DNA of 64,000 nt from Deltaproteobacteria bacterium (GCA_040218735.1 JAVJQW010000011.1:64001-128000), one strand, 5' to 3'. Shown: positions 1 to 50,592, counted from the first letter of the stretch. Numbers and translations: made by a program. Notes: a model not told the origin generated them from the sequence alone.

Positions 1-171
1 TTGTTGCTGTCCGACCCCCAGCTCGCTCGCGTCACGGGCGCGTCCAACGCCGAGATCCGCTTCGCGCTGCAGCCCGCCGGCGGTCTCGGCCGCGGGGAGG
101 ACGCGCCGACGGTGCTGGTCGAGCGCTTCGAGGTCGTGGTGCAGTATCGACTACCGACGGAGAATCGATGA
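1..171 (+). CDS. 3' end of a gene truncated by the window edge; likely paralog of the downstream kelch-like lipoprotein
   Basis: Frame +1 is open from base 1 (LLLSDPQLARVTGASNAEIRFALQPAGGLGRGEDAPTVLVERFEVVVQYRLPTENR*). Its TGA overlaps the next ATG (ATGA), and it resembles the C-terminus of 168..4046 (...GLGAGPAGPRVNADHLTLVVTYRLP). Confidence 0.7.
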   Translation: MLLSDPQLARVTGASNAEIRFALQPAGGLGRGEDAPTVLVERFEVVVQYRLPTENR

Positions 172-4046: not shown

Positions 4047-5473
4047 GCGACGACGGCTGCGGACGCGCCGACCGACGACGTGAACACCGCGACGACCGCG
4101 TTCAGATCCACGATCTCGTGCGCACCGTTGCCGCTCTGGACGTCGGTCGTGGTCGCGGTCGTGACGTACTGAATCCCGCCGGTCGTCGTGCTCGTCGGCG
4201 CATAGTCGAGGACGCCGAGGGCGCCGTCCGAGATGCCGTTCATGTTCAGGCGGCGCACGACGACGTAGCCCGAACCATCGGTCGAGGCCGCGACGCCAAA
4301 CCCGAAGGGATGCGGCGCGCTATGACCGGCAGGGACGATCAGCGGCTCCGCAGTGCCCGCCTGCACGTCGATGCGCGCGGTGCACGTCGAGTTTCCGAAA
4401 GTCGACGCACACGAGTAGTACGCGGTGGACGGCGGGCTGAACGCGATATCACCGCCCAGCGACAGCCCCGAGATCATGTGCTCGAGCGCAAACGTCTGCC
4501 CGAGGTCGGTGCTCCGGTGGATCTCGAAGCGCAGCGGCGCGTCGATGAAGGCGATCAGGTCCCCGGTCGCCGGGTCGACGTGGATCGCGCCGCCCGCGGC
4601 GGTCGCGCTGGTGATCGACGCGAGCTCGAACGTCGTCTCTCCGAAGTCGGAGTTGCGCCAGACGCGGACCTCGGAACCCGCGCTGTCCTTCACCGCCAGG
4701 AAGACGTGGTTGCGCCACGACGCGATGTGCGGGCCGTAGTCGAGCAAGCCGCTCGCCACGGGGCCGGCGTCGACCACCCGGGGCGCCGACCACGTCGCGC
4801 CGCCGTCCGTCGACTTCGCGAACACCAGCGCGCCGCCCGTCGTGTTCGCCGCGGCGTACAGGACGTCGGGGGCGTGGGCGTGGATCGCGAAGCGCTCCAC
4901 GGTGGGGATCGCGATCGGCGTCGGGTCCGCGTAGCTCACGCCGAGGTCGGCGCTCCGCGCGACGTACGGCGCGCCGGCGCAGTCCATCGCGACGAAGATA
5001 CGGCCCGAGGGGTCGACCGTGACCTTGTCGATCTGCGCGGAGGGAATCGTACACCCCGGGCCGACGACCTGCTCGGGCACCGTAGCTGCGAGCGTCGGCG
5101 CCGGCGGTCCACACACACCCGAGAGGCAGACGTCTCCGCCCGCGCAAGCTGCGTTGCAAGCACCGCAGTGCCCATCGTCGGCGAACAGGTCGGCGCATAC
5201 GCCGTCGCAGTTCGTGAGCGGGTCCATACACATGCCGGCGTCACGCGGACCACCGTCGCGCGCGCCGCCGTCGCGCGGCGTCCCCGAGTCTGGCGTACCG
5301 CCGTCGGGTACGTCGACGCCGCCGTCGCGGAACCCGGCGTCCCGTACGACTTCGGTTCCGCTGTCGCGGGTCCCGCCGTCGCGCGGGTCGATCATCTCGT
5401 CGTCGTCATCACCGCCGCTGCAGCTCGCGAGCACCAGCGCAAACGTCAAACCCACTAGGCGTCGCACCATCAT
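4040..5473 (-). CDS. Lipoprotein with RDGG linker, myxobacterial Cys-rich module and BNR/Asp-box (sialidase-like) propeller
   Basis: Lipobox VLASC; repeated RDGG/PDGG; CxDLxxDxxHCGACxxxC motif; Asp-boxes SADLGVSY, STDGGATW, STDLGQTF. Start could be 5506. Confidence 0.7.
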   Translation of the reverse strand: MMVRRLVGLTFALVLASCSGGDDDDEMIDPRDGGTRDSGTEVVRDAGFRDGGVDVPDGGTPDSGTPRDGGARDGGPRDAGMCMDPLTNCDGVCADLFADDGHCGACNAACAGGDVCLSGVCGPPAPTLAATVPEQVVGPGCTIPSAQIDKVTVDPSGRIFVAMDCAGAPYVARSADLGVSYADPTPIAIPTVERFAIHAHAPDVLYAAANTTGGALVFAKSTDGGATWSAPRVVDAGPVASGLLDYGPHIASWRNHVFLAVKDSAGSEVRVWRNSDFGETTFELASITSATAAGGAIHVDPATGDLIAFIDAPLRFEIHRSTDLGQTFALEHMISGLSLGGDIAFSPPSTAYYSCASTFGNSTCTARIDVQAGTAEPLIVPAGHSAPHPFGFGVAASTDGSGYVVVRRLNMNGISDGALGVLDYAPTSTTTGGIQYVTTATTTDVQSGNGAHEIVDLNAVVAVFTSSVGASAAVVAY

Positions 5474-5725
5474 GAAGCGTCGAGGATACACAGATCTGGT
5501 TTTCATGGGCTCCCCTTCCGCAAGCCGCGTGCCGATTGCGGCGCGTCGCGAGTCGCCATCGTGTCACGACGGATCGCCACGTCACCGTGCCATGGTTCGA
5601 GACCCCACCGCGCGACCATCGCAGCCTGAGATTCACCCCGAGACGGATCGCGTCGGGTCGCGCGGCACGGGGCCGACATGAATTCGCACTACGCATCCCT
5701 AGCGTAAACGTCGAGGCTCCGGCTC

Positions 5726-5777
5726 GCGTCACCCCCCTCGCGCCTGACACACGTCGACGCACGACCGGCTGTGACAC
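5726..5777. promoter_or_regulatory. Putative activator-binding site: GCGTCAC-N11-CTGACAC plus an extra GTGACAC half-site
   Basis: Imperfect inverted repeat at 5726-5750 and half-site at 5771-5777; the same motif and spacing occur at 14786-14810. Confidence 0.5.
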
Positions 5778-5804
5778 GACGAGGGCCGTGCAACCTAACC
5801 GCCT

Positions 5805-5820
5805 TGGCACGACCGCTGCT
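5805..5820 (+). promoter_or_regulatory. Putative sigma54 (-24/-12) promoter of the export operon
   Basis: TGGCACGACCGCTGCT versus consensus TGGCACG-N4-TTGCW, with exact GG-N10-GC spacing; ends 17 nt before the ATG at 5838. Confidence 0.65.
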
Positions 5821-5837
5821 ATCGTCCCCCGTCGACC

Positions 5838-6794
5838 ATGCAGATCGTCGAGCTCCTCCTCGCTTACGCCGGACCCACGATCGTCGGCCTCGTCTTCGTC
5901 GTGACCGGCTTCCTCAAGCTCGCCGAGCCGATGCCGTTCGGGATGCACCTGCAGAAGCTCGAGCTCGTGCCGCCGAAGTACTTCGCGCGCGTCCTGACGT
6001 TCGCGATCGTCCAGGAGCTCGTGCTCGGCGTCGCGCTCCTCATCGGTTGCGCACCGATGCTCGTCATCCCCCTCGCCATCCTCACCATCGCGACCTTCAC
6101 GATCATCACCCTGCGCGCCGGCGCCGCCGGTCGCATCACCGACTGCGGCTGTTACCAAGGGCTGATCGAGCTGACCCCGAAGCAGAGCGCGCTCGTCAAC
6201 CTCGGCTACATGCTCGCCCTCGCCGCGGCCCTCCCCTTCCGCCTGCACCTCGGCCACTGGGTCACCGGCCTGATCGTCGCCGCCGCCGCCATCGCAGCAA
6301 CGCTCCTCGCGCGCGAGTCGCTGAAGCGCAGCGCACAGATGCGCGACCCCCTCATCGATCTCAACGGCGTCAAGGCCGGCAAACGCTTCGATCCTCGCTG
6401 GACCCCCGGCTGCCCCGTCGACCTCGGCGAAGGCGAACGCCTCGTCGTCTTCCTCGGCCTCGGCTGCTCCGCCTGCAAGCCATGGCTCCCCGTCCTGCGC
6501 GCGCTGAACGCGTCGAACCAGGGGATGCCGGTCATCGGCGTGCTCGCCGGCGACGCTTCGGCGGTCATCGCGTTCGTCGCCGAATACCAAGTGGACCTCC
6601 CGCTCGTCGTCATCCCGCACGGACGATTCAACCGCCTCGTCCGCGGCACGCCGATCGCGGCGCACCTCGTCGATGGACGCATCGAACACCGCTACGTCGG
6701 GGTCCTCCCTCGCGACGTCGCGCTGCGCGCGCGCAATCGTCCAAAGCCGAGCGTCTCAGTGGAATCCACTGAAGCGATCGGGGTCGCCGGATGA
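5838..6794 (+). CDS. MauE/DoxX-family membrane protein fused to a thioredoxin-like (MauD-like) domain
   Basis: About five hydrophobic helices with GxxK and DCGCY (MauE CGC motif); C-terminal GCSAC CxxC and RGTP cis-Pro loop. Confidence 0.8.
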   Translation: MQIVELLLAYAGPTIVGLVFVVTGFLKLAEPMPFGMHLQKLELVPPKYFARVLTFAIVQELVLGVALLIGCAPMLVIPLAILTIATFTIITLRAGAAGRITDCGCYQGLIELTPKQSALVNLGYMLALAAALPFRLHLGHWVTGLIVAAAAIAATLLARESLKRSAQMRDPLIDLNGVKAGKRFDPRWTPGCPVDLGEGERLVVFLGLGCSACKPWLPVLRALNASNQGMPVIGVLAGDASAVIAFVAEYQVDLPLVVIPHGRFNRLVRGTPIAAHLVDGRIEHRYVGVLPRDVALRARNRPKPSVSVESTEAIGVAG

Positions 6795-8323
6795 GGAACC
6801 GCTCCTTCGTCATCACGCTGGCGCTCCTGGCGCCGGCGAGCGCGAGCGCCGAGGGGACACTCCGCCTCGACGACGCGGTGCGCTCCGCGCTCACGGAGCA
6901 CCCCGATCTCCTCGCCGCGCAGCAGCGGGTCGAGGCGGCGCGGGGGCAGCTCTCCTCGGTGCGCGGCACCTTCGACGAATACCTGGACGCCAGTGTGGAC
7001 TACCAACGAACCGAGGAAGCGATCACGCAGGAGCAGCGTCCCTTCGTCGGCGCGGACAGCCTCACGTCCGACGTCTTCACCGCCCGCCTCGGGCTCTCGA
7101 AGACCTTCCGCTGGGGGATGCGCGTCAACCCGTCCGTCGCCGTAACGCGAAGCGAGCGCGACGTCGGTGCCAACGCCCCCGAGACCGACGCTCTCAACCG
7201 TGCGCAAGCTCGATTGCAGGTCACGCAACCCATCTTGCGCAACGTCGGCGCCTCGTCCGCCGTGCTCCAAGAGCGCACGTCCGAGATCGCGTTCGAGGCC
7301 GCCGAACGCGACCTCGAAGGCACCGCCCAACGGCTCACGCGCGACGTCGTGAATGCGTATTGGACCTACGCCGCATCCGTCCGCCGCCTGGCGCTCCTCG
7401 AGATCTCCGAAGCGCTCGCCAAGAAGACCGCCGAGGACACCCGCGCGCTGATCGCCGCCGACGAACGCCCCGCCGCGGACGCCCTCCAGCTCGAAGCCAC
7501 CGAAGCCGACCGGCGACGGCAACGCCTCCAGGCCGAGTCCTCGGTGTTCGCGGATCGCCGCCGCCTCGGCCTCGCGATGGGGCTCGACGACGCCCGCGCG
7601 ATGGCGCTCCCGCCCCCCGCGCGCTCGCTGCCGACCGCGCCCCTGCTGGCGGCGATCGCGCCGACGGAGCCCGAGCTCGCCGCCGCGGTCGAACGACGCC
7701 CGGACGTCATCGCGGCGCGGCTCCGACTCGCCGCCAACGGCCTCTCCGTCGACGCGGCCGACTGGAACACCCTCCCGGAGCTCGACGCGAGCTTCGGCGT
7801 CGGTTACAGCGGCCGCCTCGACCGCGACGCGCCGTCCGGGCTCTTCGGCGCGCTCACCGCGAACGTGGGTCCGTCCGTCGGCGGGGGCCTCACGCTGCGC
7901 CTCCCGGTGCGCAACGCCCAGCAACGCGGCGCCCTCCTCAACCAGCTCGCAGCGCGCCGGCAAGCCGAGTTGCAGCTCTTCGATCTCGAACGCAACGTCC
8001 GCGCGAACCTCGCGATCGCACACAACCAACTCCTGCGCGCGGCCGAAGCGGTGACCGCCGCGCAGCGCGCGCTCGAGCTCTTCGAGGGGGCGCTCGACGC
8101 CGAGACCGAAAAACTCGCGGCGCAGCTCGGGACCGTGCTCGACGTGGTGCTCTCGCAGGAGCGCCTGCTCAACGCGCAGATCTCTTCGGTCGACGCCCGC
8201 GCGCAGAACGCACGCGCGCACGTCGATCTCGAGTACCAACGCGGCGTCCTCCCCAACGGCGCCGAAGACCAAGACGCCCTCGCGCGGCTCCTCGCCGCGT
8301 TCGCCGAGGAGGCCACCCCATGA
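6791..8323 (+). CDS. TolC-family outer membrane efflux protein
   Basis: Signal peptide; LRLDDAVRSALxxHPDL start; two OEP-like repeats (RRPDV, LPELD, GTVLDV); ATGA overlaps on both sides. Confidence 0.9.
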   Translation: MRNRSFVITLALLAPASASAEGTLRLDDAVRSALTEHPDLLAAQQRVEAARGQLSSVRGTFDEYLDASVDYQRTEEAITQEQRPFVGADSLTSDVFTARLGLSKTFRWGMRVNPSVAVTRSERDVGANAPETDALNRAQARLQVTQPILRNVGASSAVLQERTSEIAFEAAERDLEGTAQRLTRDVVNAYWTYAASVRRLALLEISEALAKKTAEDTRALIAADERPAADALQLEATEADRRRQRLQAESSVFADRRRLGLAMGLDDARAMALPPPARSLPTAPLLAAIAPTEPELAAAVERRPDVIAARLRLAANGLSVDAADWNTLPELDASFGVGYSGRLDRDAPSGLFGALTANVGPSVGGGLTLRLPVRNAQQRGALLNQLAARRQAELQLFDLERNVRANLAIAHNQLLRAAEAVTAAQRALELFEGALDAETEKLAAQLGTVLDVVLSQERLLNAQISSVDARAQNARAHVDLEYQRGVLPNGAEDQDALARLLAAFAEEATP

Positions 8324-9585
8324 GCTCACCGTTCCGTGAAGCCGCGCTCGAACGCCTGTCGTCGCCGGAGCAGCTCGACAGCCTGATGCAGGTCACCACC
8401 GCCAAGGGTTGGATCGCGCTCCTGACCTCCGGCGTCCTGGTCGCCGGCTTGACGGTGTGGAGCGTCGTCGGGCGCCTCCCGACCAACATCACCGGCTCGG
8501 GGGTGCTCCTCTACCGCGGCGGCGTGACCGAAGTGACCGCGCTCGGCTCGGGGCAGGTCACGGCGCTGCACGTCGCCGAGAACGACGTCGTGAAGGTGGG
8601 TCAGACGATCGCCGAGGTCGCGCAGCCGGATCTCGTCGACCAGATCACCGACGCCGAGGCTGCCGTCGAGCAGGCCCGCGCGGACCTCGAGACGCTGCAG
8701 CGCTTCGGCACCGAGGACCAGCGGCTGCAGGCCGTCAGCCTCCGCGCGAACGAGCGCGACAAAGCCGCCGCCTTGACCTCCGCGCGCGACAAACTCGCCT
8801 ACCTCGAAGAGCGCCACGCTGCGCAGCTCAAGCTCCACGACCGGGGCCTCATCACCGGCTCCACGTTGCAGCAGACGAAACAATCGATCGACGGCGCCCA
8901 GGCCGAGATCGCGCAGCTCACCCAGAGCGTCCGCGAGCTCCGCCTGTCGACGCTGCGCAACGAGAAGCAGTCCGAGTCGGAGCTGAGGAACGCCGAGGTG
9001 CGCCTCGCGGAGGCCGAGCGAAGGGTCGAGACGCTGAAGGAGCGCCTCGCGACCAGCTCGAAGGTCGCCAGCCCCTACGCGGGCCGCGTCGTCGAGGTCC
9101 GCGCGCGGCGCGGCGCGCAGGTCAACACCGGGGGCCCGGTCATCGCGCTGGAGCTCACGAGCCCCGACGACGTCGAAGAACTGGAAGCCGTCGTGTACCT
9201 CCCCCTCGCGGAGGGCAAGCGCGTGCAACCTGGCATGCGCGTCCGAGTCTCGCCTGCGACGGTGAAGGAGGAAGAGTTCGGGATGATCCACGGCGAGGTC
9301 CGCGCCGTGGACGGGTTCGTCTCCAGCCGTCAGGGCATGGCGCGCCTTCTCGAGAACGAGGACCTCGTCTCCAGCCTGATGCAGAGCGCGGGGGGAACGG
9401 CGCTCGGCGTGCGCGTGACCCTCGACCGTGACGAAGCCGCGAAGAGCGGCTTTTCGTGGACCTCGGGCGAAGGCCCCCCGCTACAGGTCGAGAGCGGCAC
9501 GCCCTGCTCCGCCACGATCACCCTCGAGACCGAGCGCCCGATCGCCCAGCTACTGCCGTCCGTCGCGAGGTGGTTGGGGCCGTGA
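8320..9585 (+). CDS. NHLP bacteriocin-system secretion protein (HlyD-like membrane fusion protein)
   Basis: N-terminus FREAALERLSSPEQLD, one TM helix, coiled coil, SPYAGRV and C-terminal SGFSWTSGEGP...RPI. Real start is ATG 8320, not 6673. Confidence 0.9.
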   Translation: MSSPFREAALERLSSPEQLDSLMQVTTAKGWIALLTSGVLVAGLTVWSVVGRLPTNITGSGVLLYRGGVTEVTALGSGQVTALHVAENDVVKVGQTIAEVAQPDLVDQITDAEAAVEQARADLETLQRFGTEDQRLQAVSLRANERDKAAALTSARDKLAYLEERHAAQLKLHDRGLITGSTLQQTKQSIDGAQAEIAQLTQSVRELRLSTLRNEKQSESELRNAEVRLAEAERRVETLKERLATSSKVASPYAGRVVEVRARRGAQVNTGGPVIALELTSPDDVEELEAVVYLPLAEGKRVQPGMRVRVSPATVKEEEFGMIHGEVRAVDGFVSSRQGMARLLENEDLVSSLMQSAGGTALGVRVTLDRDEAAKSGFSWTSGEGPPLQVESGTPCSATITLETERPIAQLLPSVARWLGP

Positions 9586-11711
9586 AACGCAAGAAGGTCG
9601 AGACCGTCCTCCAGATGGAGGCCGTAGAGTGCGGCGCCGCGTCACTCGCGATGATCCTCGGCTACTACGGCGCGCACGTCCCGCTCGAAGAGCTCCGCTA
9701 CGAGTGCGGCGTGTCGCGCGACGGCACCAAGGCCGGCAACATCCTCCGCGCCGCGCGCACCTACGGCCTCACCGCGAAGGGCTTCAAGAAGGAGCCGTCG
9801 CAGCTCGCCGAGATGCCGCTCCCCGCGGTGCTGCACTGGAACTTTCAGCACTTCCTCGTGCTCGAAGGCATCGACGACGAAAAGGCGTGGCTCAACGATC
9901 CCGCGCTCGGTCAACGGACCGTCACCCTCGAACAGCTCGACGAGGCCTTCACGGGCGTCGTCCTCACCTTCGAACCCAACGACGCGTTCAAAAAGCGCGG
10001 CGCGCCGATGCGAGTGTGGCCGAAGCTCCTGGAACGCATCCAGGGTTCGAAGTCCGCGCTCGTCTTCGCCGTCGTCGCCGGGCTCCTCCTCGCGGTGCCG
10101 GGGATCGTGATCCCCCTCCTCGCGCGGATCTTCGTCGACGAGATCCTCGTGGGCGGAAAGACGAGCTGGCTCCTCCCGCTCCTCGCCTTCGCCGCGCTCC
10201 TCCTCGTCCTGCAGTCCGGGCTCGGCCGACTGCGCGCGAAGAACCTCCTCGACTTCCGCACCAAGCTCTCCGTCCTGGGCTCGGCGCGCTTCATCTGGCA
10301 CACGCTGCGGATCGAGCCGCGGTTCTTCGAAGCGCGCTTGCCGGGCGACGTCGCGATGCGCGCCGGCCTCGAGTCTTCGCTCGCGGGGACCCTCGCCGGG
10401 CAGCTCGCGAGCACCTTCATCGATCTGCTGCTCGTCGTCTTCTACCTGATCGTGATGCTGTCGTTCGACGTCCCGCTCACGCTCGCCGCCGTGACCGCCG
10501 CCGCGATCAACATCGTCGCGCTCCGGATGATCCAGTCCCACCGCGCGACCCTGAGCAACCGCGCGTCGCGCGCCGAGTCGAACCTCAACGGCGTGCAGTC
10601 GGCGGGGCTCATGCAGATCGAGACGCTCAAGTCGACGGGATCCGAGAGCCAGTTCTTCGAACGCTGGGCCGGGAACTACGCCCACGTCGTGAACACCAAG
10701 CAGGAGTCGACCGACAGCAACCTGCGCCTCGGCCTCGTGCCCGCGCTCCTCGGTGGGATCTCCACCGCGGTCATCCTCTGCTGGGGCGCGACCCGCGTGC
10801 TCGACGGCGCGATGACGATGGGGACGCTCGTCGCGTTCCAAGCGCTCACCGCCTCGTTCCTCGGCCCGGTCCAGCGCGTCCTCGGGCTGTGGTCGACGGT
10901 CCAGATGCTCCCCGGCAACCTGGTCCGCCTCGACGACGTCCTGAAACAACGCGTCGACGACCCGTTCGGCGAAGGCAACGATCGGACGCCGCTCGTCGGG
11001 CGCGTCGAGCTGGAGGGCGTGACGTTTGGCTACAGCCCGCGCGAGCCGCCGCTGCTCGACGACTTCTCGCTCACCGTCGAACCGGGGCAACGCGTCGCGC
11101 TCGTCGGGAGCTCCGGGAGCGGCAAGAGCACCATCGCGAAGCTCATCGCCGGCGTGTATCCGCCGTGGGCCGGCACGGTCCTCTTCGACGGGCGACCGCC
11201 GAACACGATCGACCGCCGCGCGTTCCTGGACGCGTTCAGCGTGGTGAACCAGGAGATCATCCTCTTCGAAGGCACTGTCCGCGAGAACCTCACGTTCTGG
11301 GACGACTCGATCCCGCAGGAGGACGTCGTGCGCGCGGCGAAGGACGCGTGCATCCACGAACACATCGTCGGCCTCCCGAACGGCTACGACACAAAGCTCG
11401 AAGAGGCCGGCCGGAACCTGAGCGGCGGGCAGCGGCAGCGCCTCGAGCTCGCGCGCGCGCTCGTCAAGAACCCGGCGCTCCTCGTGCTCGACGAAGCGAC
11501 GAGCGCGCTCGACTCGACGGTCGAGCAGCAGATCGATCGCAACCTGAGGCGCCGTGGGTGCACCTGCCTGATCGTCGCGCACCGCCTGAGCACCGTGCGC
11601 GACGCGGATCAGATCGTCGTCCTCGAACGCGGCAAGGTCGTGGAGCGCGGGACCCACGACGACCTGTACGCGTCCGACGGCACCTACAAACGACTGGTGG
11701 CGTCGGCATGA
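9582..11711 (+). CDS. NHLP-family ABC transporter with C39 peptidase, permease and ATPase domains
   Basis: LQMEAVECGAASL (catalytic Cys), CGVSRDG, HWNFQHF (His), NDPA; Walker A GSSGSGKS; LSGGQRQR; LDEATSALD. GTG start overlaps the upstream TGA. Confidence 0.93.
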   Translation: MKRKKVETVLQMEAVECGAASLAMILGYYGAHVPLEELRYECGVSRDGTKAGNILRAARTYGLTAKGFKKEPSQLAEMPLPAVLHWNFQHFLVLEGIDDEKAWLNDPALGQRTVTLEQLDEAFTGVVLTFEPNDAFKKRGAPMRVWPKLLERIQGSKSALVFAVVAGLLLAVPGIVIPLLARIFVDEILVGGKTSWLLPLLAFAALLLVLQSGLGRLRAKNLLDFRTKLSVLGSARFIWHTLRIEPRFFEARLPGDVAMRAGLESSLAGTLAGQLASTFIDLLLVVFYLIVMLSFDVPLTLAAVTAAAINIVALRMIQSHRATLSNRASRAESNLNGVQSAGLMQIETLKSTGSESQFFERWAGNYAHVVNTKQESTDSNLRLGLVPALLGGISTAVILCWGATRVLDGAMTMGTLVAFQALTASFLGPVQRVLGLWSTVQMLPGNLVRLDDVLKQRVDDPFGEGNDRTPLVGRVELEGVTFGYSPREPPLLDDFSLTVEPGQRVALVGSSGSGKSTIAKLIAGVYPPWAGTVLFDGRPPNTIDRRAFLDAFSVVNQEIILFEGTVRENLTFWDDSIPQEDVVRAAKDACIHEHIVGLPNGYDTKLEEAGRNLSGGQRQRLELARALVKNPALLVLDEATSALDSTVEQQIDRNLRRRGCTCLIVAHRLSTVRDADQIVVLERGKVVERGTHDDLYASDGTYKRLVASA

Positions 11712-14269
11712 CCAGCGCGACGTACGACAGCCGAACGACCCGCTCCATCGAGGGCAACGCCCCGCTGTGGCTCGTCGGCGACGGCGCGTGGCGGGTCGTC
11801 GGCGGCGAGGTCGATCTGTTCGTGGTGCAGCGGCGAGACGGCCGCGCCGTCGGGCGGCGCCGCTACCTCGGACAGATCGGCGCGAACGCCCTCCTCCTGG
11901 AGCTCGAGTGCGACGCCGAGCATCAGCTCCTCGCCGTCGGGGTGCTCGGCACGACGGTCGAGCGTGTCGAAGACCCGTCCCCGAGCGACCCCGCGCTCGG
12001 CCCCTGGCGCAAGATCTTCGGCGGCGAGGATCCCCGCGTCGCCGCCCAGACCTTCCTGGCCGACGAGGCCCCCCGCGAATTGAACGCCCGTGCGGCGATC
12101 CGCGATCGGGTGGAGGCCGGCGTCGAGCGCAACCGCGACCTCTTCGACGCCGCCCTGCGAGGCCTCGGCGATCTCCGCCTCCGCGGCGCCGCGAAGTGGT
12201 CGCCGCCCGACGAACCGTTGGCCTTCGCGATCGCCCACGTCGCGCGCGCCGAGGGCATGACGCCGCCCGCGAGCGCGTTCGAGGACCTCGGCGAAGGTGA
12301 CGCCAAGACGCGCCTCGAACGCTTCGGCCGCCGCGCTCGCGCGCGGAGCCGGCGCGTGTTGCTGCGCGGGGACTGGTTCAGAACCGACGCCGGCTCCCTC
12401 GTCGCGTTCGAGGACCGCGGCGTCGACAAGCCTTACCCCGTCGCGTTGGTCCGCACCGCGGCGGGTTACGTGCTGCACGCCGCACAGGAGGCGCCCGTCG
12501 CCGTCGACCGCGAGGTCTCGGACCGGCTGACCGGCGAGGCGTTCCAGCTCTACCCGGGCTTCGACAAGGACCGCATCACACCCGTCGATCTCGTTCGCTT
12601 CGCGATGCGCGGCCGACGCACCGACGCGATCGTGATGGCCGCGATCGGGATCGCGGGTGCGGTCGTGGGGTCCGCCGTCCCGCTCGCGACGAAGGAGATC
12701 TTCGGCACCGTCATTCCGAACGCCGCGCACTCGATGCTGTGGTTGGTGTTCGCGGCGCTCATCGGGCTCACCGTCGCGCAGGCGGTGTTCCAGCTGTCGA
12801 TGGGGCTCGCGCAGCTGCGGCTCGAGTCGCGCACCACCGCCGCGTCGCAGGCGGCGGTCCTGGATCGTGTGCTCAGCCTGCCGATGGGATTCTTCCGGCG
12901 GTTCGGCACGGGGGATCTGTCGCAGCGCGCGATGGGCATCGAACAGATCCGCTCGATGCTCTCGGGGACGGTCTTTGCGTCGTTGATGTCGTTTGTCTTC
13001 TCGCTGTCGAGCTTCGCGCTCTTGTTCTACTTCAGCCTCCAGCTCGCGCTCGCGGGGCTCGTGCTCGTCCTGATCGCCGGGGGCGTCGCGGTGTTCAGCG
13101 CGTGGATCGACGTGCGACTGATGCGGCGCATGGAGGAAGCGCGCGGCGCGACTTCGAACTACCTCCTCGAAAACCTCGCGGGGATCGCCAAGATCAAATC
13201 GGCGGGCGCCGAGGCCCACGTGTTCGCGGAGTGGTCGAAGCGCTTCGGGCGACAGTGGTCACTCACGTATCGCTCGACGGACATCCAGAACGACGTGCAG
13301 ACCTTCACCACCGCGTTCCCGCTGTTCTGTTCGATGGTGCTGTTCTTCATCGTCGGCAACTCGGGCGGCGACATCGGTACCGCCGACTACGTCGCGTTCT
13401 CCGCCGCGTTCACCGCGTTCAACGGGGCCGCGCTCGGCCTGATCAACGCCGGGCTGATGGCCCTCAGGATCGTCCCGCTCTACGAGCGCGCGCGGCCGAT
13501 CCTCGAGACAACGCCCGAGGTCCCGACCGAACGCCTCGCCGACGTGGACCTGAACGGGAAGATCGAGGTCAGCCACGTGAGCTTCGGCTACGACCCGGAG
13601 GCGCCGGTGCTCGAGGACGTCAGCTTCGAGGTCCCCGCCGGCCAGATGGTCGCGCTGGTCGGTCCCTCCGGCTCCGGGAAGTCGACGCTGGTGCGGCTCC
13701 TCCTCGGGTTCGAGACACCGACGTCCGGCGCGGTGTACTTCGACGACCAAGACCTGTCCGAGATGAACGCCGAGGCCGTGCGCCGGAACATGGGCGTCGT
13801 GACCCAGACCGGCGAGGTCCTCGGCGGAACGATCCTCGAGAACATCCGCGGCGGGACCGACGCGACGATGGAGCAGGTCTGGACCGCCGCGGAGCGCGCG
13901 GCGTTCGCCGACGAGATCCGCGCGATGCCGATGGGGATGCACACCGTCCTCCAGCCGCGCGGCGGGACACTCTCCGGCGGCCAGCGGCAGCGCCTGCGGA
14001 TCTCGCGGGCGCTGGTCGAAGAGCCGAAGATCCTCGTCCTCGACGAAGCGACGAGCGCGCTCGACAACCGGACGCAGGCGGTCGTCACGGACAGCCTGCA
14101 GGCGCTCGGCGTGACGCGGCTGGTGATCGCGCACCGGCTCAGCACGATCGAGCGCGCGGACCTGATCGTCTACCTCGAGGACGGGCGCGTGGTGGAGCGC
14201 GGCACGTTCGAGGAGCTCATGGCGCTCGACGGCGCCTTCGCGAAGCTGGCGCGCCGGCAGCAGGCGTGA
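11708..14269 (+). CDS. NHLP bacteriocin-system second ABC transporter (permease/ATPase, no peptidase)
   Basis: N-terminal WxVxxGEVDLF cNMP-like segment, RRVLLRGDWFRTDAGSLV motif, TM bundle, GPSGSGKS, LSGGQRQR. ATG 11708 overlaps the upstream TGA. Confidence 0.9.
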   Translation: MTSATYDSRTTRSIEGNAPLWLVGDGAWRVVGGEVDLFVVQRRDGRAVGRRRYLGQIGANALLLELECDAEHQLLAVGVLGTTVERVEDPSPSDPALGPWRKIFGGEDPRVAAQTFLADEAPRELNARAAIRDRVEAGVERNRDLFDAALRGLGDLRLRGAAKWSPPDEPLAFAIAHVARAEGMTPPASAFEDLGEGDAKTRLERFGRRARARSRRVLLRGDWFRTDAGSLVAFEDRGVDKPYPVALVRTAAGYVLHAAQEAPVAVDREVSDRLTGEAFQLYPGFDKDRITPVDLVRFAMRGRRTDAIVMAAIGIAGAVVGSAVPLATKEIFGTVIPNAAHSMLWLVFAALIGLTVAQAVFQLSMGLAQLRLESRTTAASQAAVLDRVLSLPMGFFRRFGTGDLSQRAMGIEQIRSMLSGTVFASLMSFVFSLSSFALLFYFSLQLALAGLVLVLIAGGVAVFSAWIDVRLMRRMEEARGATSNYLLENLAGIAKIKSAGAEAHVFAEWSKRFGRQWSLTYRSTDIQNDVQTFTTAFPLFCSMVLFFIVGNSGGDIGTADYVAFSAAFTAFNGAALGLINAGLMALRIVPLYERARPILETTPEVPTERLADVDLNGKIEVSHVSFGYDPEAPVLEDVSFEVPAGQMVALVGPSGSGKSTLVRLLLGFETPTSGAVYFDDQDLSEMNAEAVRRNMGVVTQTGEVLGGTILENIRGGTDATMEQVWTAAERAAFADEIRAMPMGMHTVLQPRGGTLSGGQRQRLRISRALVEEPKILVLDEATSALDNRTQAVVTDSLQALGVTRLVIAHRLSTIERADLIVYLEDGRVVERGTFEELMALDGAFAKLARRQQA

Positions 14270-14279
14270 GGAGGAACCG

Positions 14280-14777
14280 ATGCGACAGGCTTTGTACATC
14301 CTAGGGCAACTCACGGACGACGACGTGGAGTGGATGATCCAAAACGGTCGTCGCCACGCCGCGCGCACCGGCGACGTCCTGATCCGCGAGGGTGAGCCGG
14401 TGCGGTCGCTGTTCGTGCTGCTCGACGGCCTCGTCGCGATCGAGCGTGGCGGCAAGCGGATCAACACGTCGCAACCGGGTGAGTTCTTGGGAGAGCTGTC
14501 CTTCGTGGACTCGCGGCCGCCGAGCGCGACGGTCAAGGCGGCCCGCGACTCATCGCTCCTCGAATTGCCGCGTGACGTGCTGGTGCGCCACCTCGGTGAA
14601 GACCTCGGGTTCGCGAGCCGCTTCTACCGCGCGGTGGCGGTGTTCCTCGCCGACCGCGTGCGCGCGGAGATCGGCGGAGGTCACGATCCGGACGAGCTCG
14701 ATCCGGACGTGCTCGACGAGGTGAGTCGGGCGGGCGAGCGGTTCACGCGGATCCTTCAGAGGTTTCAGCGAGCGTGA
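14280..14777 (+). CDS. Cyclic nucleotide-binding domain protein of the bacteriocin-transport-associated type
   Basis: LYILGQLTDDDVEWM start, VLIREGE, GEFLGELSFVDSRPPSATVKA, GFASRFYRAVA, DELD. GAGGAG RBS upstream. Confidence 0.85.
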   Translation: MRQALYILGQLTDDDVEWMIQNGRRHAARTGDVLIREGEPVRSLFVLLDGLVAIERGGKRINTSQPGEFLGELSFVDSRPPSATVKAARDSSLLELPRDVLVRHLGEDLGFASRFYRAVAVFLADRVRAEIGGGHDPDELDPDVLDEVSRAGERFTRILQRFQRA

Positions 14778-14785
14778 GCGGTGAC

Positions 14786-14810
14786 GTGTCACAAGCGCGG
14801 GCGGTGACAC
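14786..14810. promoter_or_regulatory. Perfect inverted repeat GTGTCAC-N11-GTGACAC, putative activator site
   Basis: Read directly from the sequence; overlaps a GCGGTGAC direct repeat (14778 and 14801). Confidence 0.55.
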
Positions 14811-14838
14811 AGAGGACACGATCGAGGCGCGGCCGCGG

Positions 14839-14854
14839 TGGCCCGCTTGGTGCA
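14839..14854 (+). promoter_or_regulatory. Putative sigma54 (-24/-12) promoter of the precursor gene
   Basis: TGGCCCGCTTGGTGCA with GG-N10-GC spacing, 50 nt upstream of ATG 14905; GGAGGA upstream of the start. Confidence 0.55.
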
Positions 14855-14904
14855 TTTCGAAAACGTAGGCGCGACACGATAGGCGCGCGGAGGAATGAAG
14901 AGAG

Positions 14905-15585
14905 ATGAAGAGCATCACCATCAACGGAAAGACGTACTACCCGGGCGACGAGGTCGAAGTGGAGATCGATGGGCAAAAGCATCGACTCCCGTTCCCCAAG
15001 GACCCGGGCGTGTCCGAATCGGGCGAGCTCAGCGACGATGCGCTGGACGCCGTCACCGGGGGCGCCGGAAGCTACCCGGTGTGTCCCGGATCCGAGGGTA
15101 CCGGCGGCACGCCCATCTGTGACGTGGCTTCGCTGTACATCGGCGCCCTCTGCTTCGAGACGGGGTCGACGCTCCAATGTTTCTGCTCGAGGAGCAACGG
15201 CTACGCCATCGACTCGTACACGAACTGCCAGGGGCTCGGTCCGGACACCACGGTGTCCGACGCTCGCGTGAAGCAGGACGTCCAGCCCCTCGAAGGCGCG
15301 CTCGACACCCTCCTCGCGCTCCGCGGCGTCACGTTCGCCTACGACGCCGAAAAGGCGCCCGGCACGCGGCCCGGTGAGCACGTCGGGTTCGTCGCGCAGG
15401 AGGTCGAAGAGGTCCTCCCCACCTGGGTGCACGAGGCCGGAGGCATCAAGCGCCTGAAGGCCGAGGGGCTCTCCTTCGAAGCGCTCGCCGTCGAGGCGCT
15501 CCGGGAGCTGAAGAAGCAGAACGAACGCCTCGCCGAAGACAACGCCGAGCTGCGCAAGCGGCTGGATCGAATCGAGTCCGCCTGA
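14905..15585 (+). CDS. Tripartite precursor: double-glycine NHLP-like leader, 6-Cys core, Peptidase_S74 intramolecular chaperone/autocleavage domain
   Basis: Leader ends ELSDDALDAVTGG (aa 41-53); Cys at 60, 72, 83, 92, 94, 108; SDARVK (S118/K123), LRGVTFAY, GFVAQEVEEVLP and a terminal coiled coil. Confidence 0.85.
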   Translation: MKSITINGKTYYPGDEVEVEIDGQKHRLPFPKDPGVSESGELSDDALDAVTGGAGSYPVCPGSEGTGGTPICDVASLYIGALCFETGSTLQCFCSRSNGYAIDSYTNCQGLGPDTTVSDARVKQDVQPLEGALDTLLALRGVTFAYDAEKAPGTRPGEHVGFVAQEVEEVLPTWVHEAGGIKRLKAEGLSFEALAVEALRELKKQNERLAEDNAELRKRLDRIESA

Positions 15586-15619
15586 TCCGCTTCTGCCCCG
15601 ACCTGCTACGCTGCGCGCG

Positions 15620-17686
15620 ATGTCGGACGTCGACCTCGCGCGCGTGCTCAACGAACGGTTCGGGCTCTCATCGTTCCGCCCCGGGCAGGAAGAAGCCATC
15701 CGCGCGCTCCTCGCCGACGGGCGCCTCCTCTGCATCCAGCCCACTGGCCACGGCAAGTCCCTGCTCTACCAGCTCCCGGCGACGCTCCTGCCGGGCATCA
15801 CGCTCGTCATCTCGCCGCTGCTCGCGCTCGTGCGCGATCAGGTGCAGCAGCTCGGCGAGCGCTTCTCGATCCACGCCGTCGCGATCAACTCCGACCAGGA
15901 GGACGACGAAAACGAGGCCGCGATGCGCGACGCCGCGAGCGGCGCTGCGAAGATCCTGTTCGTGTCCCCGGAGCGCCTCGACAACGTGGAGGCGTGGCAG
16001 TTCCTCCTGAGCCTCGCGGTCGACCTCGTCGTCGTCGACGAAGCGCACTGCATCTCGACGTGGGGGCACGACTTCCGCCCGTCGTACCGGCGCATCGTCG
16101 ACGCGGTGCAGAGCCTCTCCGGGCAGCGCGAAGGTGTGCGCGTCCTCGGCCTCACTGCGACGGCGTCGGCGCGCACCGAAGCGGACATCGCGCGGCAGCT
16201 CGCGCCGGATGCGGATCACCCGCTCACCGTGATGCGGGCGTCGATGGACCGCGCGAACCTCTCCCTCGCGACCCGGAGCGTGTCCGGCCCGGCGGAGAAG
16301 CTCGGCTGGCTCGACGCGTTCCTCGCGGACGCGGAGGGCACCGGCATCCTCTACTGCGCGACGCGCGATCAGACGGAGGTCGTCGCGGCGTTCCTCTCCG
16401 CGCGCGGGCACGACGTCGTCGCCTACCACGCGGGGCTCGCGCCCGAGGACAAGCGTCGGCTGCAGCAAGCGTTCACGCGCGGGGACCACAAGGCGATCGC
16501 CGCGACGAATGCGTTGGGGATGGGGATCGACAAGGCGGACCTGCGCTTCATCGTTCACGTCGACGTCCCGGGCTCGATCACCGCGTACTACCAGGAGGTC
16601 GGCCGCGCGGGACGCGACGGGGAGCCGGCCCGTGGCGTGCTGCTCTTCGACCCCGCCGACCGACGCATCCAGGCGCACTTCATCCGCTCCGCGCAGCCGA
16701 CCGCCGAGGACTTCGACCAAGTGCTCTCGGTGCTGCGTCCGGGGGGCGACGATGAGTGGCCGAACCTCACTCAGGTGAAGATGCGCTCCGGCCTCCACCC
16801 GACGCGCGTCACTGTCGTGCTCGCCGAGCTGCGCGAGCAGGGCCGCGTCGAGAAGGTCCTCGACCGCCGTCGCCAGGTCTACCGAACGATCGAGGGCGAC
16901 CACCCGCCGCTGGATCTGACGCGTTATATTCGACAGAACGAGGTCCGGACGAACGAGCTCGAGGCGATGATGCGCTACGCCGCGGCCGAGGTGCCGTGCG
17001 CGATGCAGGCGCTCCGCGTCGCGCTCGGTGACGACGGCGCCGAACGTTGCGGGCGCTGCGATCGGTGCGCACCCGATGCGTGGTCACTCCCGGCGCCGGG
17101 CGTTGGCGCCGAGGTCGCGGGGCGCTGGCTCTCGGATCGCGTCGTCCCGATCCCCGCGATGCGGACGAACAAGGTGTCCGAGGGCGTCGCGCTGATGACG
17201 AGCGAGGAGCGCAGCCCGCCGTTCCTGCACTTCATGAAGGCGCGCACGAACGCCACGTCGCTCGACGCGGTCGTGCTCGAGAACCTCGATGCACGCGCGG
17301 CCGAGCTCGCCGAGCTACATCGGTTCTCCGCGGTGGTCGCGGTGCCCTCTCGGACGTGGGCGCAGCGGACGGCCACCGGCGAGCGGCTCGCCGCGGCCGT
17401 CGGCGCGACGTTCGTCGAGGCCCTGCGTTGGCGCGAGCCGCCCGAGGCTCGCCAGGGCGAGCTGCTCAACAACGACCAGCGACGCGACAACGTGAAGGGC
17501 CGCCTCGACGCGGCGCTCGACGACGACGGCGGCGCGGTGCTCCTCGTCGACGACTACACCGGGAGCGGGTCGACCCTCGCGGAGGCCGCGCGTGCGCTCC
17601 GCAAGGATGCGGGTTGGTCCGGGGCGATCGTCCCGTTTGTCATCGCGAAGGTGCGCTGGCGGCTCGGCGCCCGCGGGATCGTCTGA
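15620..17686 (+). CDS. RecQ-family ATP-dependent DNA helicase with C-terminal PRTase-like domain
   Basis: PTGHGKS, DEAHCISTWGHDFRP, TATA, YYQEVGRAGRDG, Zn site CGRCDRC; C-terminal VLLVDDYTGSGSTL. Confidence 0.9.
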   Translation: MSDVDLARVLNERFGLSSFRPGQEEAIRALLADGRLLCIQPTGHGKSLLYQLPATLLPGITLVISPLLALVRDQVQQLGERFSIHAVAINSDQEDDENEAAMRDAASGAAKILFVSPERLDNVEAWQFLLSLAVDLVVVDEAHCISTWGHDFRPSYRRIVDAVQSLSGQREGVRVLGLTATASARTEADIARQLAPDADHPLTVMRASMDRANLSLATRSVSGPAEKLGWLDAFLADAEGTGILYCATRDQTEVVAAFLSARGHDVVAYHAGLAPEDKRRLQQAFTRGDHKAIAATNALGMGIDKADLRFIVHVDVPGSITAYYQEVGRAGRDGEPARGVLLFDPADRRIQAHFIRSAQPTAEDFDQVLSVLRPGGDDEWPNLTQVKMRSGLHPTRVTVVLAELREQGRVEKVLDRRRQVYRTIEGDHPPLDLTRYIRQNEVRTNELEAMMRYAAAEVPCAMQALRVALGDDGAERCGRCDRCAPDAWSLPAPGVGAEVAGRWLSDRVVPIPAMRTNKVSEGVALMTSEERSPPFLHFMKARTNATSLDAVVLENLDARAAELAELHRFSAVVAVPSRTWAQRTATGERLAAAVGATFVEALRWREPPEARQGELLNNDQRRDNVKGRLDAALDDDGGAVLLVDDYTGSGSTLAEAARALRKDAGWSGAIVPFVIAKVRWRLGARGIV

Positions 17687-17718
17687 CGGCGCGTCTTGGC
17701 GTACGCTCGGAGCAACGG

Positions 17719-50554: not shown

Positions 50555-50592
50555 GTTGCCTCCGCGTCCCGAAGATGGTCTCGATCCCCGCG

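Follow-up and report, generated by a model that had tools for sequence, protein, structure and literature searches.

Introduction

The NHLP/Nif11 export cassette described by Haft et al. (2010, PMC2887384) resembles the locus reported here in its three transporter proteins, which in our locus all score above the equivalog cut-offs, in a cNMP-binding protein of the 'bacteriocin-type transport-associated' kind, and in a peptidase that is closest to LahT150. The locus differs from the cassette as described there in that it has no NHLP or Nif11 leader, in that a 173-residue protein part takes the place of a short modified core, and in that the operon itself includes a TolC and a thiol oxidase. A cyclodehydratase, lanthionine synthetase or radical-SAM enzyme is also absent from the 36 ORFs scanned in the window (the whole 64 kb stretch of DNA that was analysed).

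In the sublancin operon (sunA-sunT-bdbA-sunS-bdbB), a GG precursor, a PCAT and the BdbA/BdbB pair are found together (PMC6391423). Our locus is similar to sublancin and the glycocins, as presented in that source, in that a precursor with a GG leader, a C39 ABC exporter and a dedicated DsbA/DsbB-like oxidase are encoded in one operon, for a secreted peptide that is (here by prediction) disulfide-rich. However, it is of the Gram-negative type, with HlyD and TolC, and its oxidase is of the MauE type and fused to its putative thioredoxin partner. It has no glycosyltransferase. The precursor has a predicted autocleaving trimerisation domain at its C-terminus, which is not known from the sublancin, glycocin or pediocin-type systems. 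Pediocin-type systems carry a thioredoxin-like accessory protein.

S74 or ICA domains are found in phage tail spikes and fibres, in MyRF and in the MAT fibres of Bdellovibrio. In the accounts available, trimerisation of MyRF is needed for its cleavage, and the N-terminal ~130 aa of MAT fibres form a conserved domain (PMC8326128, PMC10769870). Our precursor shares with these proteins the fold, the SDxxxK dyad and a C-terminal helix of the kind that forms a triple helix, and the domain again lies at the extreme C-terminus of a (predicted) extracytoplasmic protein. The known cellular S74 proteins, as those papers present them, have Sec signal peptides and long fibre shafts, whereas a double-glycine leader is found on our precursor; what has to fold is a stretch of 64 residues with six cysteines, and shaft and anchor are both absent. 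With no signal peptide, no shaft and only these 64 residues between leader and S74, the precursor is not a MAT fibre.

[quoted passage not shown] The CXC between TM3 and TM4 is present in our locus, together with a CxxC partner whose thioredoxin fold is putative. Here, however, they form one fused chain, in a peptide-export operon and not in a mau cluster, and the CXC is followed by Y-Q-G and not by the usual F-G.

We consider it probable, if by no means assured, that this seven-gene operon, driven by a sigma-54-type promoter, is a dedicated line for the export, oxidation and self-trimerisation of the product of its last gene. To the original prediction, made from the sequence of the window, the present analysis adds the conservation in a congener, the hypervariable six-cysteine core, the scan for other cargo, the MauE CXC motif, and the putative sigma-54-type promoter in front of the operon.

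Organisation of the operon

The operon consists of seven co-directional genes, at 5838-15585 of the window, from a Deltaproteobacteria bacterium (GCA_040218735.1). In order, these are the MauE-thioredoxin fusion, TolC, HlyD, ABC1 (with a C39 domain), ABC2, a cNMP-binding protein and the precursor, of 226 residues (Table 1). All seven have a coding-type GC3, of 0.84-0.94. The host is a large marine bacterium.

The original prediction placed the start at 5726, but this position is intergenic: the first gene begins at 5838, because an upstream stop codon closes the frame. It was correct in stating that five genes are joined by four 4-nt overlaps, which read ATGA at 6791-6794, 8320-8323 and 11708-11711, and GTGA at 9582-9585, and that the cNMP gene follows ABC2 by 10 nt, the stop codon being at 14269, the gap including GGAGGA, and the ATG being at 14280.

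Across the 64 kb window, TGGCACN5YTGCW matches at the candidate promoter element alone, against an expectation of 0.02; matches occurred in 2 of 100 shuffles, and the promoter block is identical in the congener G011. As regards expression, short near-identical contigs are present in two metatranscriptome runs, for which DNA carry-over is possible.

Table 1 Features of the operon and its precursor, with positions in the window.
Feature	Position	Strand	Evidence or remark
Sigma-54-type -24/-12 promoter element (TGGCAC-N5-CTGCT), putative	5805..5820	+	17 nt upstream of first start codon
MauE (DsbB-like) membrane oxidase + thioredoxin-like CxxC domain (P0002, 318 aa)	5838..6794	+	PF07291 57 bits, cut-off 27
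TolC-family outer-membrane channel	6791..8323	+	PF02321 (OEP/TolC) 118 bits, cut-off 22
NHLP-type HlyD membrane-fusion protein	8320..9585	+	TIGR03794 314 bits, cut-off 156
ABC1: C39 peptidase/permease/ATPase (PCAT)	9582..11711	+	TIGR03796 990 bits, cut-off 853
ABC2: permease/ATPase without peptidase domain	11708..14269	+	TIGR03797 764 bits, cut-off 709, residues 168-851
Single-domain cNMP-binding protein, bacteriocin-transport-associated type (P0003)	14280..14777	+	PF00027 63 bits, cut-off 27.5
Precursor leader, residues 1-53: small beta-rich N-terminal part, helix ending at GG	14905..15063	+	
Precursor core, residues 54-117, 64 residues	15064..15255	+	Six Cys: 60, 72, 83, 92, 94, 108
S74 intramolecular chaperone/autoprotease + C-terminal coiled-coil helix, residues 118-226 + stop	15256..15585	+	PF13884 62 bits, cut-off 22

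A Pfam scan of 36 ORFs in the window turned up neither a YcaO nor a LanM/LanC nor a radical-SAM domain, in agreement with the earlier statement that no classical RiPP-modifying enzyme is present. Judged by these ORFs, the locus is not a RiPP cluster in the sense of a precursor linked to a leader-dependent modifying enzyme, and the only chemistry that the gene content implies for the product would be disulfide formation and proteolysis. There is no evident immunity gene in the operon, which weakens a reading of the product as a bacteriocin.

The export machinery

HlyD, ABC1 and ABC2 are consecutive and overlapping, and each is above its NCBIfam equivalog cut-off, which identifies the trio as an NHLP export system. 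The TolC gene scores 91.7 against TIGR01844, under the cut-off of 225. TolC has no cysteine and HlyD has one; among the exported proteins of the operon, therefore, the precursor alone is rich in cysteine.

The closest match to the peptidase domain of ABC1 is LahT150 (6MPZ, E=1e-46). Its Cys27/His101/Asp117 triad aligns with C17, H90 and D106 of ABC1, so that the catalytic Cys and His are indeed intact, as had been claimed. Residues 1-167 of ABC2 have no match in Pfam or NCBIfam, and resemble neither the C39 domain nor the operon's cNMP protein. The cNMP protein itself scores 122 bits against cyc_nuc_ocin (TIGR03896), below 161 and over model positions 139-317 only; with its single cNMP domain it is not a full-length, two-domain member of that family. 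It probably gates transport.

The precursor

The sequence of the precursor has no Sec-type hydrophobic N-terminus. The motif ELSDDALDAVTGG ends at residue 53, and V50 (-4), L47 (-7), L42 (-12) and G52-G53 are conserved in all four family members. A GG site, hydrophobic -4, -7 and -12 positions and the lack of a Sec signal together bear out the assignment of a double-glycine leader, for which cleavage is predicted, and these are the positions whose residues occupy the hydrophobic pockets of LahT. The AF2 model of the leader has strands at 4-29 (pLDDT 79-86) and a helix at 44-51. Against the NHLP model the leader scores 12.8 bits (cut-off 50.9), the match being to the GG end only, and it is neither an NHLP nor a Nif11 leader.

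The core has six cysteines in all four complete family members, one of which is distant (P0068), and C72, C83, C92 and C108 are invariant. Compared with the congener, the core has 32% identity (dN 0.79), as against 75-78% identity (dN 0.15-0.16) for the leader and the S74 domain that flank it; in other words, the core is diverging five-fold faster. The AF2 model of the core is of low confidence (pLDDT 43-68), and a trimeric fold for it is a proposal only. It is worth adding that the combination of a bacteriocin-type GG leader and an S74 domain in one protein was found in five genes only, and that no description of it was found in the literature.

The C-terminal part is an S74/ICA domain by its Pfam score, its Ser-Lys dyad within SDxxxK, and its C-terminal helix. 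The model of this part has a pLDDT of 83-98, with a long helix at 190-225, and Foldseek matches it to the ICA domain of MyRF (7DC3, E=5e-6) and also to 3GUD. The five-residue spacing of the Ser118/Lys123 dyad is the same as that of S911/K916 and S587/K592. The fold, the dyad spacing and the long helix support trimerisation and autocleavage, as far as can be judged from sequence and model.

It might be proposed that the S74 domain no longer cleaves, giving an intact coiled-coil trimer or a monomer in which the Cys-rich part and S74 are both functional, for example as an adhesin or lectin. The S74 domains of phage and MAT fibres follow long β-helical fibres, next to which a segment of 64 residues is remarkably short; no trimeric fold is predicted for it with confidence, and all of this would fit such a protein. 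However, none of the 10 aligned sequences and none of the 4 family members departs from S118, D119, R121 or K123, the neck residues G110 and G112, upstream of the predicted cleavage site, are conserved with ordinary S74 fibres, and the S74 part is under purifying selection (dN/dS 0.26). Loss of cleavage thus seems quite improbable, and an autocleaving S74 domain is the reading that we retain.

The MauE fusion and its putative thioredoxin domain

That the first gene encodes a MauE, as originally predicted, is confirmed by its Pfam score (Table 1) together with a CXC motif in the TM3-TM4 loop. All 4 aligned homologues keep the motif, C103-G-C105, which sits between predicted TM3 (74-96) and TM4 (~117-135, a weaker segment), the other hydrophobic segments being at ~8-30, 49-70 and 140-161. 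The last of these is a fifth hydrophobic helix past TM4, after which comes the CxxC domain, with C210-S-A-C213 kept in 3 of 3 orthologues. Thioredoxin matches to this C-terminal half are sub-threshold (AhpC-TSA, 17-19 bits against 26), as is the alignment of its GCSAC motif with the ResA active site (E=0.03); the neighbours of the protein in the ESM Atlas are fusions of MauE with AhpC-TSA or Thioredoxin_2. The topology given to the thioredoxin domain is based on hydropathy and on the 4-TM model of the MauE preprint.

This is the sole MauE above cut-off in the genome, where there are also two VKOR homologues, which suggests a dedicated oxidase, additional to these. Its close orthologues number only two among 5.8 billion clusters, which is equal to the count of close precursor homologues.

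The precursor could nevertheless be exported and cut at its GG site without the fusion being its maturase. The fusion could be a self-protection device, which reduces or scrambles re-entering product in the periplasm, or it could serve the envelope as a general oxidase and only happen to lie in this operon, with the disulfides arising spontaneously outside the cell. In ABC-HlyD-TolC systems the cargo normally crosses both membranes in a single step, and such export would bypass the periplasm. In addition, ResA/TlpA-type domains, the best structural matches, act as reductants in their known roles; a separate immunity gene is not seen in the operon; and MauE is present in relatives without the precursor. 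Against this, the gene is the first of the operon, is translationally coupled, and is kept with the operon in the congener, and its close orthologues are as few as those of the precursor. General oxidation is already served by the two VKOR homologues, and MauE is reported as an oxidase. A fusion that has no part in maturation is for these reasons unlikely, and we continue to regard it as the oxidase of the precursor.

Conservation and the search for other cargo

The original prediction made itself dependent on the linkage of MauE to the S74 precursor. This linkage is conserved in the only congener (G011), one independent relative, in which the whole operon is kept on two abutting contigs with 77% DNA identity; it is thus seen in two genomes of one genus. 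Two relatives from the same family have the TolC-trio cassette, with neither MauE-Trx nor an S74 precursor in the 15-20 kb around it. Within the order, MauE is above cut-off in 5 of 20 genomes, of which 3 are without the precursor.

These relatives, which carry the trio and no precursor, could mean that the precursor is a passenger, a phage-derived remnant that is not exported here, and that the cargo of the transporter is encoded elsewhere. NHLP-type trios are described as often serving precursors encoded elsewhere (Haft et al. 2010, PMC2887384), and in the congener there is a second, orphan copy of the precursor, far from the transporter. The original prediction had itself raised the question of whether the transporter serves peptides encoded elsewhere. 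However, in the genome, which is 96.5% complete, the best NHLP leader scores 30.8 bits (cut-off 50.9) and the best Nif11 leader 17.2 bits (cut-off 32.3), so that no leader of the TIGR03793 or TIGR03798 type, as would mark NHLP-system cargo, is found on the precursor or genome-wide. Motif scans of the genome gave two plausible GG leaders only, each adjoining one of the two full-length C39 exporters: that of the precursor, and that of one other peptide beside the other exporter. No other candidate cargo is therefore seen in this genome. The precursor has a canonical GG leader and no Sec signal, G011 retains it along with the rest of the operon, and the orphan copy there has the same leader, which fits export in trans by the same pump. 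It is most unlikely that the precursor is a mere remnant, and we take it to be the cargo of the exporter.

Proposed mechanism

What the sequences show directly is the order of the genes, the catalytic and motif residues, and which parts are conserved or variable; every processing step, the order and location of the steps, and the biological role are what we infer. The original proposal was of type I secretion with proteolysis, disulfide formation and chaperoned trimerisation, and each of these elements has the sequence features that it would require.

The precursor, 226 residues long and lacking a Sec signal, would first be synthesised. Its leader helix (L42, L47, V50) would be recognised by the C39 domain of ABC1, which would cut after G53, and the ABC1/ABC2 pair, with the HlyD adaptor and TolC, would export the chain. 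On the periplasmic side, MauE-Trx would combine a DsbB-like oxidase, linked to quinone, and a DsbA-like partner of its own, and would introduce three disulfides into the 64-residue core. The S74 domains of three chains may zip together by their long helices, templating the core trimer, and would then self-cleave at Ser118 through the Ser118/Lys123 dyad. The product released would be a ~20 kDa trimer of 64-residue disulfide-rich chains.

For MauE-Trx to oxidise the core from the periplasmic side, the cysteines would have to be accessible there at one stage or another. TolC does not admit a folded trimer, and, taken together with the one-step route of such exporters and a periplasmic MauE-Trx, this makes any order of oxidation, export and trimerisation tentative. 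A precedent that would reconcile MauE-Trx with TolC is the enterotoxin STII, which is described as being oxidised by DsbA in the periplasm before it leaves by MacAB-TolC (PMC5985334). In that account Sec brings STII into the periplasm and its pump is of the MacB type, whereas here there is a PCAT pair, for which periplasmic release is hypothetical.

The hypervariable surface suggests interbacterial antagonism or target recognition, and it is one of these roles that we favour for the product. The same processing could alternatively yield a secreted, pheromone-like signal or a matrix or adhesion factor, and not an antagonist: PCATs export pheromones too, sigma-54 control and a cNMP-binding accessory suggest regulated, conditional release, and the lack of an evident immunity gene would also fit. 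We regard this as very unlikely, since the rapid divergence of the core and the formation of paralogs are more typical of arms-race molecules, and no cognate receptor gene is evident beside the operon, although diversifying pheromone systems do exist.

Quite possibly, though we put this forward tentatively, an antagonist or recognition protein made in this way would be the first of a class of secreted mini-proteins that depend on an exporter and assemble themselves. The GG leader would take an unfolded chain through the PCAT/TolC exporter, MauE-Trx would set three disulfides, and a phage-derived S74 follower would fold three hypervariable 64-residue warheads into a trimer beyond the cytoplasm and then remove itself. 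If this is true, it would represent a portable, ATP-independent device for assembly after export, which bacteria took over from phage tail fibres for use in recognition or in warfare with other bacteria.

Organisation of the operon

All seven genes proposed for the operon, and the families assigned to them, are real. The window has a G+C content of about 70%, which is why the raw ORF lists are crowded, and the seven genes are set apart by a third-position G+C of 0.84-0.94, which is of coding type. Each family score lies above its cut-off, these being MauE (57 bits against 27), OEP/TolC (118 against 22), NHLP-type HlyD (TIGR03794, 314 against 156), Peptidase-ABC (TIGR03796, ABC1, 990 against 853), the second ABC (TIGR03797, ABC2, 764 against 709), cNMP_binding (63 against 27.5) and Peptidase_S74 (62 against 22). 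The original prediction placed the start of the region at 5726, which is intergenic; the first gene starts at 5838. Its claim of coupling by 4-nt overlaps holds, the four junctions reading ATGA, ATGA, GTGA and ATGA in gene order, and the cNMP gene does follow ABC2 after 10 nt, with the spacer containing GGAGGA.

Location of features in and around the operon, at the second export locus of the genome and in the congener G011
Feature	Location	Strand	Remarks
Divergent lipoprotein gene	4040-5506	-	Lipobox LASC; acidic low-complexity linker; Stig1-like Cys-rich motif
Sigma-54-type -24/-12 element	5805-5820	+	TGGCAC-N5-CTGCT; 17 nt before first ATG
ABC2 N-terminal extension	11708-12208	+	167 residues beyond the TIGR03797 model
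FHA + sigma-54-activator + HTH_8 enhancer-binding protein	17047-19041	+	
Ser/Thr kinase with cNMP-binding domain	19034-20725	+	After the enhancer-binding protein; pair lies 2-5 kb downstream of the operon
AhpC/TSA-family protein	28005-28553	-	
DsbA-like thioredoxin protein	38681-39337	-	
Full-length Peptidase_M2	50575-52449	+	Angiotensin-converting-enzyme-like; 735 bits
Tryptophan-halogenase-like flavoenzyme	52451-53971	-	Adjoins the Peptidase_M2 gene
Second peptide-export locus	L013 (G000:C56:104000-123999) 6159-14469	-	Includes cupin and JmjC-like genes
Full-length C39-ABC	L013 8617-10860	-	
Small GG-leader ORF	L013 12607-12921	-	15-residue Lys/Pro-rich tail
Only other S74 protein of the genome	L013 13048-14469	-	Sec signal and collagen repeat; directly upstream of the GG-leader ORF
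Second precursor copy in G011	L016 (G011:C1141) 1501-1581 and L031 (G011:C233) 2-409		Orphan; same leader; split over two contig ends

The precursor

The precursor P0001 (226 residues) was modelled as a monomer with AlphaFold2, giving a mean pLDDT of 77. Its N-terminus has no hydrophobic Sec-type segment. The leader (residues 1-53) ends in ELSDDALDAVTGG, with V-4, L-7 and L-12 present, these being the positions (-4, -7 and -12) whose residues are described as entering hydrophobic pockets of the protease LahT (PMC6363468). In the model the leader forms a small four-stranded β-unit at 4-29 and a helix at 44-51. Assignment to the NHLP/Nif11 leader type was rejected (12.8 bits against a cut-off of 50.9, the match being at the GG end alone), as was a likeness of the N-terminus to DUF7210 (22 bits, under the cut-off of 27). 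Six Cys lie in the core (54-117), for which the model has low confidence (pLDDT 43-68).

The S74 domain (118-226) is modelled at pLDDT 83-98, with a terminal helix of 36 residues. Foldseek matches it to the ICA domain of MyRF (7DC3, E=5e-6) and also to the endosialidase chaperone 3GUD, and in sequence it matches the tip of a phage long tail fibre (6F45, E=1.3e-5). The five-residue spacing of S118 and K123 is that of the catalytic dyads reported for endoNF (S911/K916) and MyRF (S587/K592) (PMC8326128), and S118, D119, R121 and K123 are invariant in all 10 aligned S74 proteins. Cleavage of MyRF is described as requiring prior trimerisation via the C-terminal helix (PMC8326128).

With its double-glycine leader, P0001 differs from the cellular S74 proteins described from a predatory bacterium, which carry a Sec signal, a conserved N-terminal domain and a long shaft (PMC10769870). 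It is the second S74 protein of this genome that is of this Sec-dependent, fibre-like type, with a signal peptide and a collagen repeat.

The exporter and its candidate cargo

Over its N-terminal 150 residues ABC1 matches LahT150, a double-glycine protease of known crystal structure (E=1e-46). The C39 catalytic residues are intact, as had been predicted, with C17, H90 and D106 falling on Cys27, His101 and Asp117, the triad reported for LahT150 (PMC6363468). ABC2 has no peptidase domain, matching the published description of the second ABC protein of NHLP-type trios (PMC2887384). For its N-terminal extension no family match was found, and the extension resembles neither the C39 domain nor the cNMP protein. 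Relatives, too, have long ABC2 ORFs (about 980-1000 residues as listed).

ABC1 is the sole TIGR03796 match above cut-off in the 11.6 Mb, 96.5%-complete genome, which has one further full-length C39-ABC (contig C56, 621 bits). No leader in the genome exceeds the NHLP cut-off (best 30.8 bits against 50.9) or the Nif11 cut-off (best 17.2 against 32.3). A six-frame motif scan for further GG leaders, suggested in the original prediction, gave 4 matches with a strict motif and 14 with a looser one, the plausible ones being the same two in both: P0001, and a small ORF ending in ELSPEELEAVGGG plus 15 residues, beside the second C39-ABC. Each exporter therefore has its own adjacent candidate cargo, among leaders of the NHLP, Nif11 and GG types that these scans cover; leaders of an unforeseen type would be missed.

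It is worth adding that each of the two S74 genes of the genome has one of the two C39 exporters no more than about 2 kb away. On contig C56 this proximity is treated as an unproven link, the fibre gene being kept in the congener G011 with no C39 neighbour.

The thiol module

P0002, the product of the first gene, contains a MauE domain and the motif C103-G-C105; it has some five hydrophobic helices, and GCSAC is found in its C-terminal domain. According to a recent preprint (10.64898/2026.03.05.709764), MauE proteins substitute for DsbB in E. coli, they have an essential CXC on the periplasmic side between TM3 and TM4, and thioredoxin-family fusions make up 8.2% of MauE entries. A fifth helix after a four-TM core with its C-terminus inside would put the CxxC domain of P0002 in the periplasm. 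This domain has only sub-threshold matches, to AhpC-TSA (17-19 bits against 26) and to ResA (E=0.03, with the active sites aligned), which are consistent with a putative thioredoxin; the ESM Atlas neighbours of P0002 include fusions of MauE to AhpC-TSA or Thioredoxin_2.

P0002 is the only MauE protein above cut-off in the genome, which also encodes two VKOR homologues and in which no DsbB was found. General disulfide formation is therefore probably VKOR-based, and P0002 looks like an extra, dedicated oxidase. Since TolC contains no Cys and HlyD one, no exported product of the operon other than the precursor is Cys-rich. Elsewhere in the window lie genes for a DsbA-like thioredoxin protein and for a member of the AhpC/TSA family.

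Distribution and divergence of the family

A search with P0001 among 5.8 billion protein clusters found 60 proteins at E<=0.001. Apart from the query, the only full-length matches are P0004 and P0005 (63-67% identity), the rest covering the S74 half, and a leader together with six Cys before the cleavage site is found in 3 of the 60. Leader plus core, searched exhaustively with HMMER against 1.84 billion representatives, returned three proteins, namely P0005, P0067 and P0068. P0067 is a repeat protein that matches a low-complexity stretch only, and was rejected. P0068 (MEM7201331.1, 242 residues, encoded on a 59.7 kb contig of an NCBI MAG labelled Planctomycetota) has the same leader β-unit, GG motif, six-Cys core and S74 domain.

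With the leader profile, the family was detected in 2 genomes out of 401 sampled across the phylum and in 2 of 20 in class and order; marginal partial matches in 6 of the 401 (17-20 bits) were taken as chance. On metagenome contigs the profile gave four loci (L041-L044) and no convincing member: three of them (L042-L044) are 18-residue matches, while L041, an 81-residue ORF on a low-GC contig, shares DGKTYYPGDE alone and was rejected for want of Pfam or PHROG support. No member was found on viral contigs, and the ESM Atlas gave no usable match for leader plus core. The family totals five genes in the collections searched. The second copy in G011 lies away from the transporter and adjoins a divergently transcribed 461-residue ORF.

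The Cys at positions 72, 83, 92 and 108 are invariant in all four complete members. In P0001 and P0068 the remaining two are an upstream Cys and part of a CxC; in P0004 and P0005 both lie upstream. Such a joint shift, with the total of six kept in each member, is expected if three disulfides form. Comparison with the G011 orthologue gives 75% identity for the leader (dN 0.16, dN/dS 0.21), 78% for the S74 domain (dN 0.15, dN/dS 0.26) and 32% for the core (dN 0.79, dN/dS 0.54, with dS near saturation).

The predicted linkage of MauE and S74 precursor is kept in G011, the only congener, which has the whole operon at 77% DNA identity. It lies there on two contigs that abut inside ABC1/ABC2; the shared stretch begins with the divergently oriented lipoprotein gene upstream, and synteny stops after the precursor. 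This lipoprotein gene, kept beside the operon at 72% DNA identity, has a weak, sub-threshold BNR match (20.9 bits against 27). Close orthologues of P0002 in the large collection number two, one from G011 and one from another assembly, which mirrors the number for the precursor, and a contig scan with P0002 returned the congener and one weak match. Of the 20 genomes of the order, 5 encode a MauE protein above cut-off. TolC-HlyD-ABC1-ABC2 cassettes are present in two other genera of the family (G012 and G002), where the 15-20 kb covered contained neither MauE-Trx nor a precursor of the S74 or GG type, so that both MauE-Trx and precursor seem to have been added to a mobile export cassette. In G012 a Cys-rich lipoprotein is likewise found upstream of the cassette.

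Regulation and occurrence

The sigma-54-type element is the sole match in the 64 kb window, where 0.02 would be expected, and the block is identical in G011; as a promoter it implies an unusually short 5' untranslated region, which speaks for some caution. A scan for sigma-70 promoters and terminators found nothing useful. The window has six GTGTCAC heptamers, four of them in the two intergenic regions of the operon, upstream of MauE-Trx and of the precursor (at 5561, 5771, 14786 and 14804); one of the four forms the palindrome GTGACGTGTCAC. The intergenic regions of G011 contain similar motifs, and the heptamers may be regulator sites. The nearby FHA-type sigma-54 activator is not assigned as the regulator, since its arrangement is not syntenic in G011.

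Near-identical copies of the operon (5700-15700) occur in metagenome contigs (X1-X17) from aquaculture, biofloc, sponge, seawater and biofilm, which points to a marine, surface-associated organism. In one sponge-metagenome run a single 16 kb contig spans the entire operon and shows 137 differences over 10 kb. Two metatranscriptome runs gave short, near-identical contigs that touch all seven genes; DNA carry-over is possible, and they are therefore not counted as proof of transcription.

Proposed pathway and significance

We read the operon as a dedicated line for its own precursor. The C39 peptidase would first cut after G53, with export via ABC1/ABC2-HlyD-TolC; MauE-Trx would next set three disulfides; the S74 domain would then drive trimerisation; and self-cleavage at S118 would finally free a trimer of 64-residue chains. 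The weak point of this mechanism is geometry, since export coupled to TolC usually skips the periplasm, and TolC does not let a folded trimer through. A reconciling route would have the monomeric core oxidised in a periplasmic step, leaving through TolC and trimerising outside the cell. Enterotoxin STII is reported to be oxidised in the periplasm and then to exit via TolC (PMC5985334), and sublancin is described as having a GG-precursor/PCAT operon with a dedicated oxidase pair (PMC6391423).

As to the product, the fast divergence of the core together with paralogy favours a role in antagonism or target recognition. No immunity gene is evident and the promoter is of a regulated type, which makes signalling or adhesion possible roles as well.

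By title and abstract, the papers listed from the open-access literature and bioRxiv gave no description of an S74 or intramolecular chaperone in a double-glycine protein, and those sources listed nothing relevant on MauE with bacteriocin, thioredoxin or C39. Judged from sequence, the system is rated as a new combination of known modules, these being a GG leader with PCAT, a DsbB-like oxidase and an S74 chaperone. With a family of five genes, its importance is mechanistic and not ecological. Should the proposed pathway hold, these three familiar modules can be joined in one maturation line whose product, a small trimeric protein rich in disulfides, needs no classical modifying enzyme. S74 biology would then reach from long Sec-dependent fibres to short exporter-dependent cargo, and the newly proposed MauE oxidase would gain a natural dedicated client. 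The line would also offer a compact system to secrete and trimerise small designed domains. The hypervariable six-Cys core, flanked by conserved ends, is in addition a natural library of molecules with possible antibacterial or binding activity.
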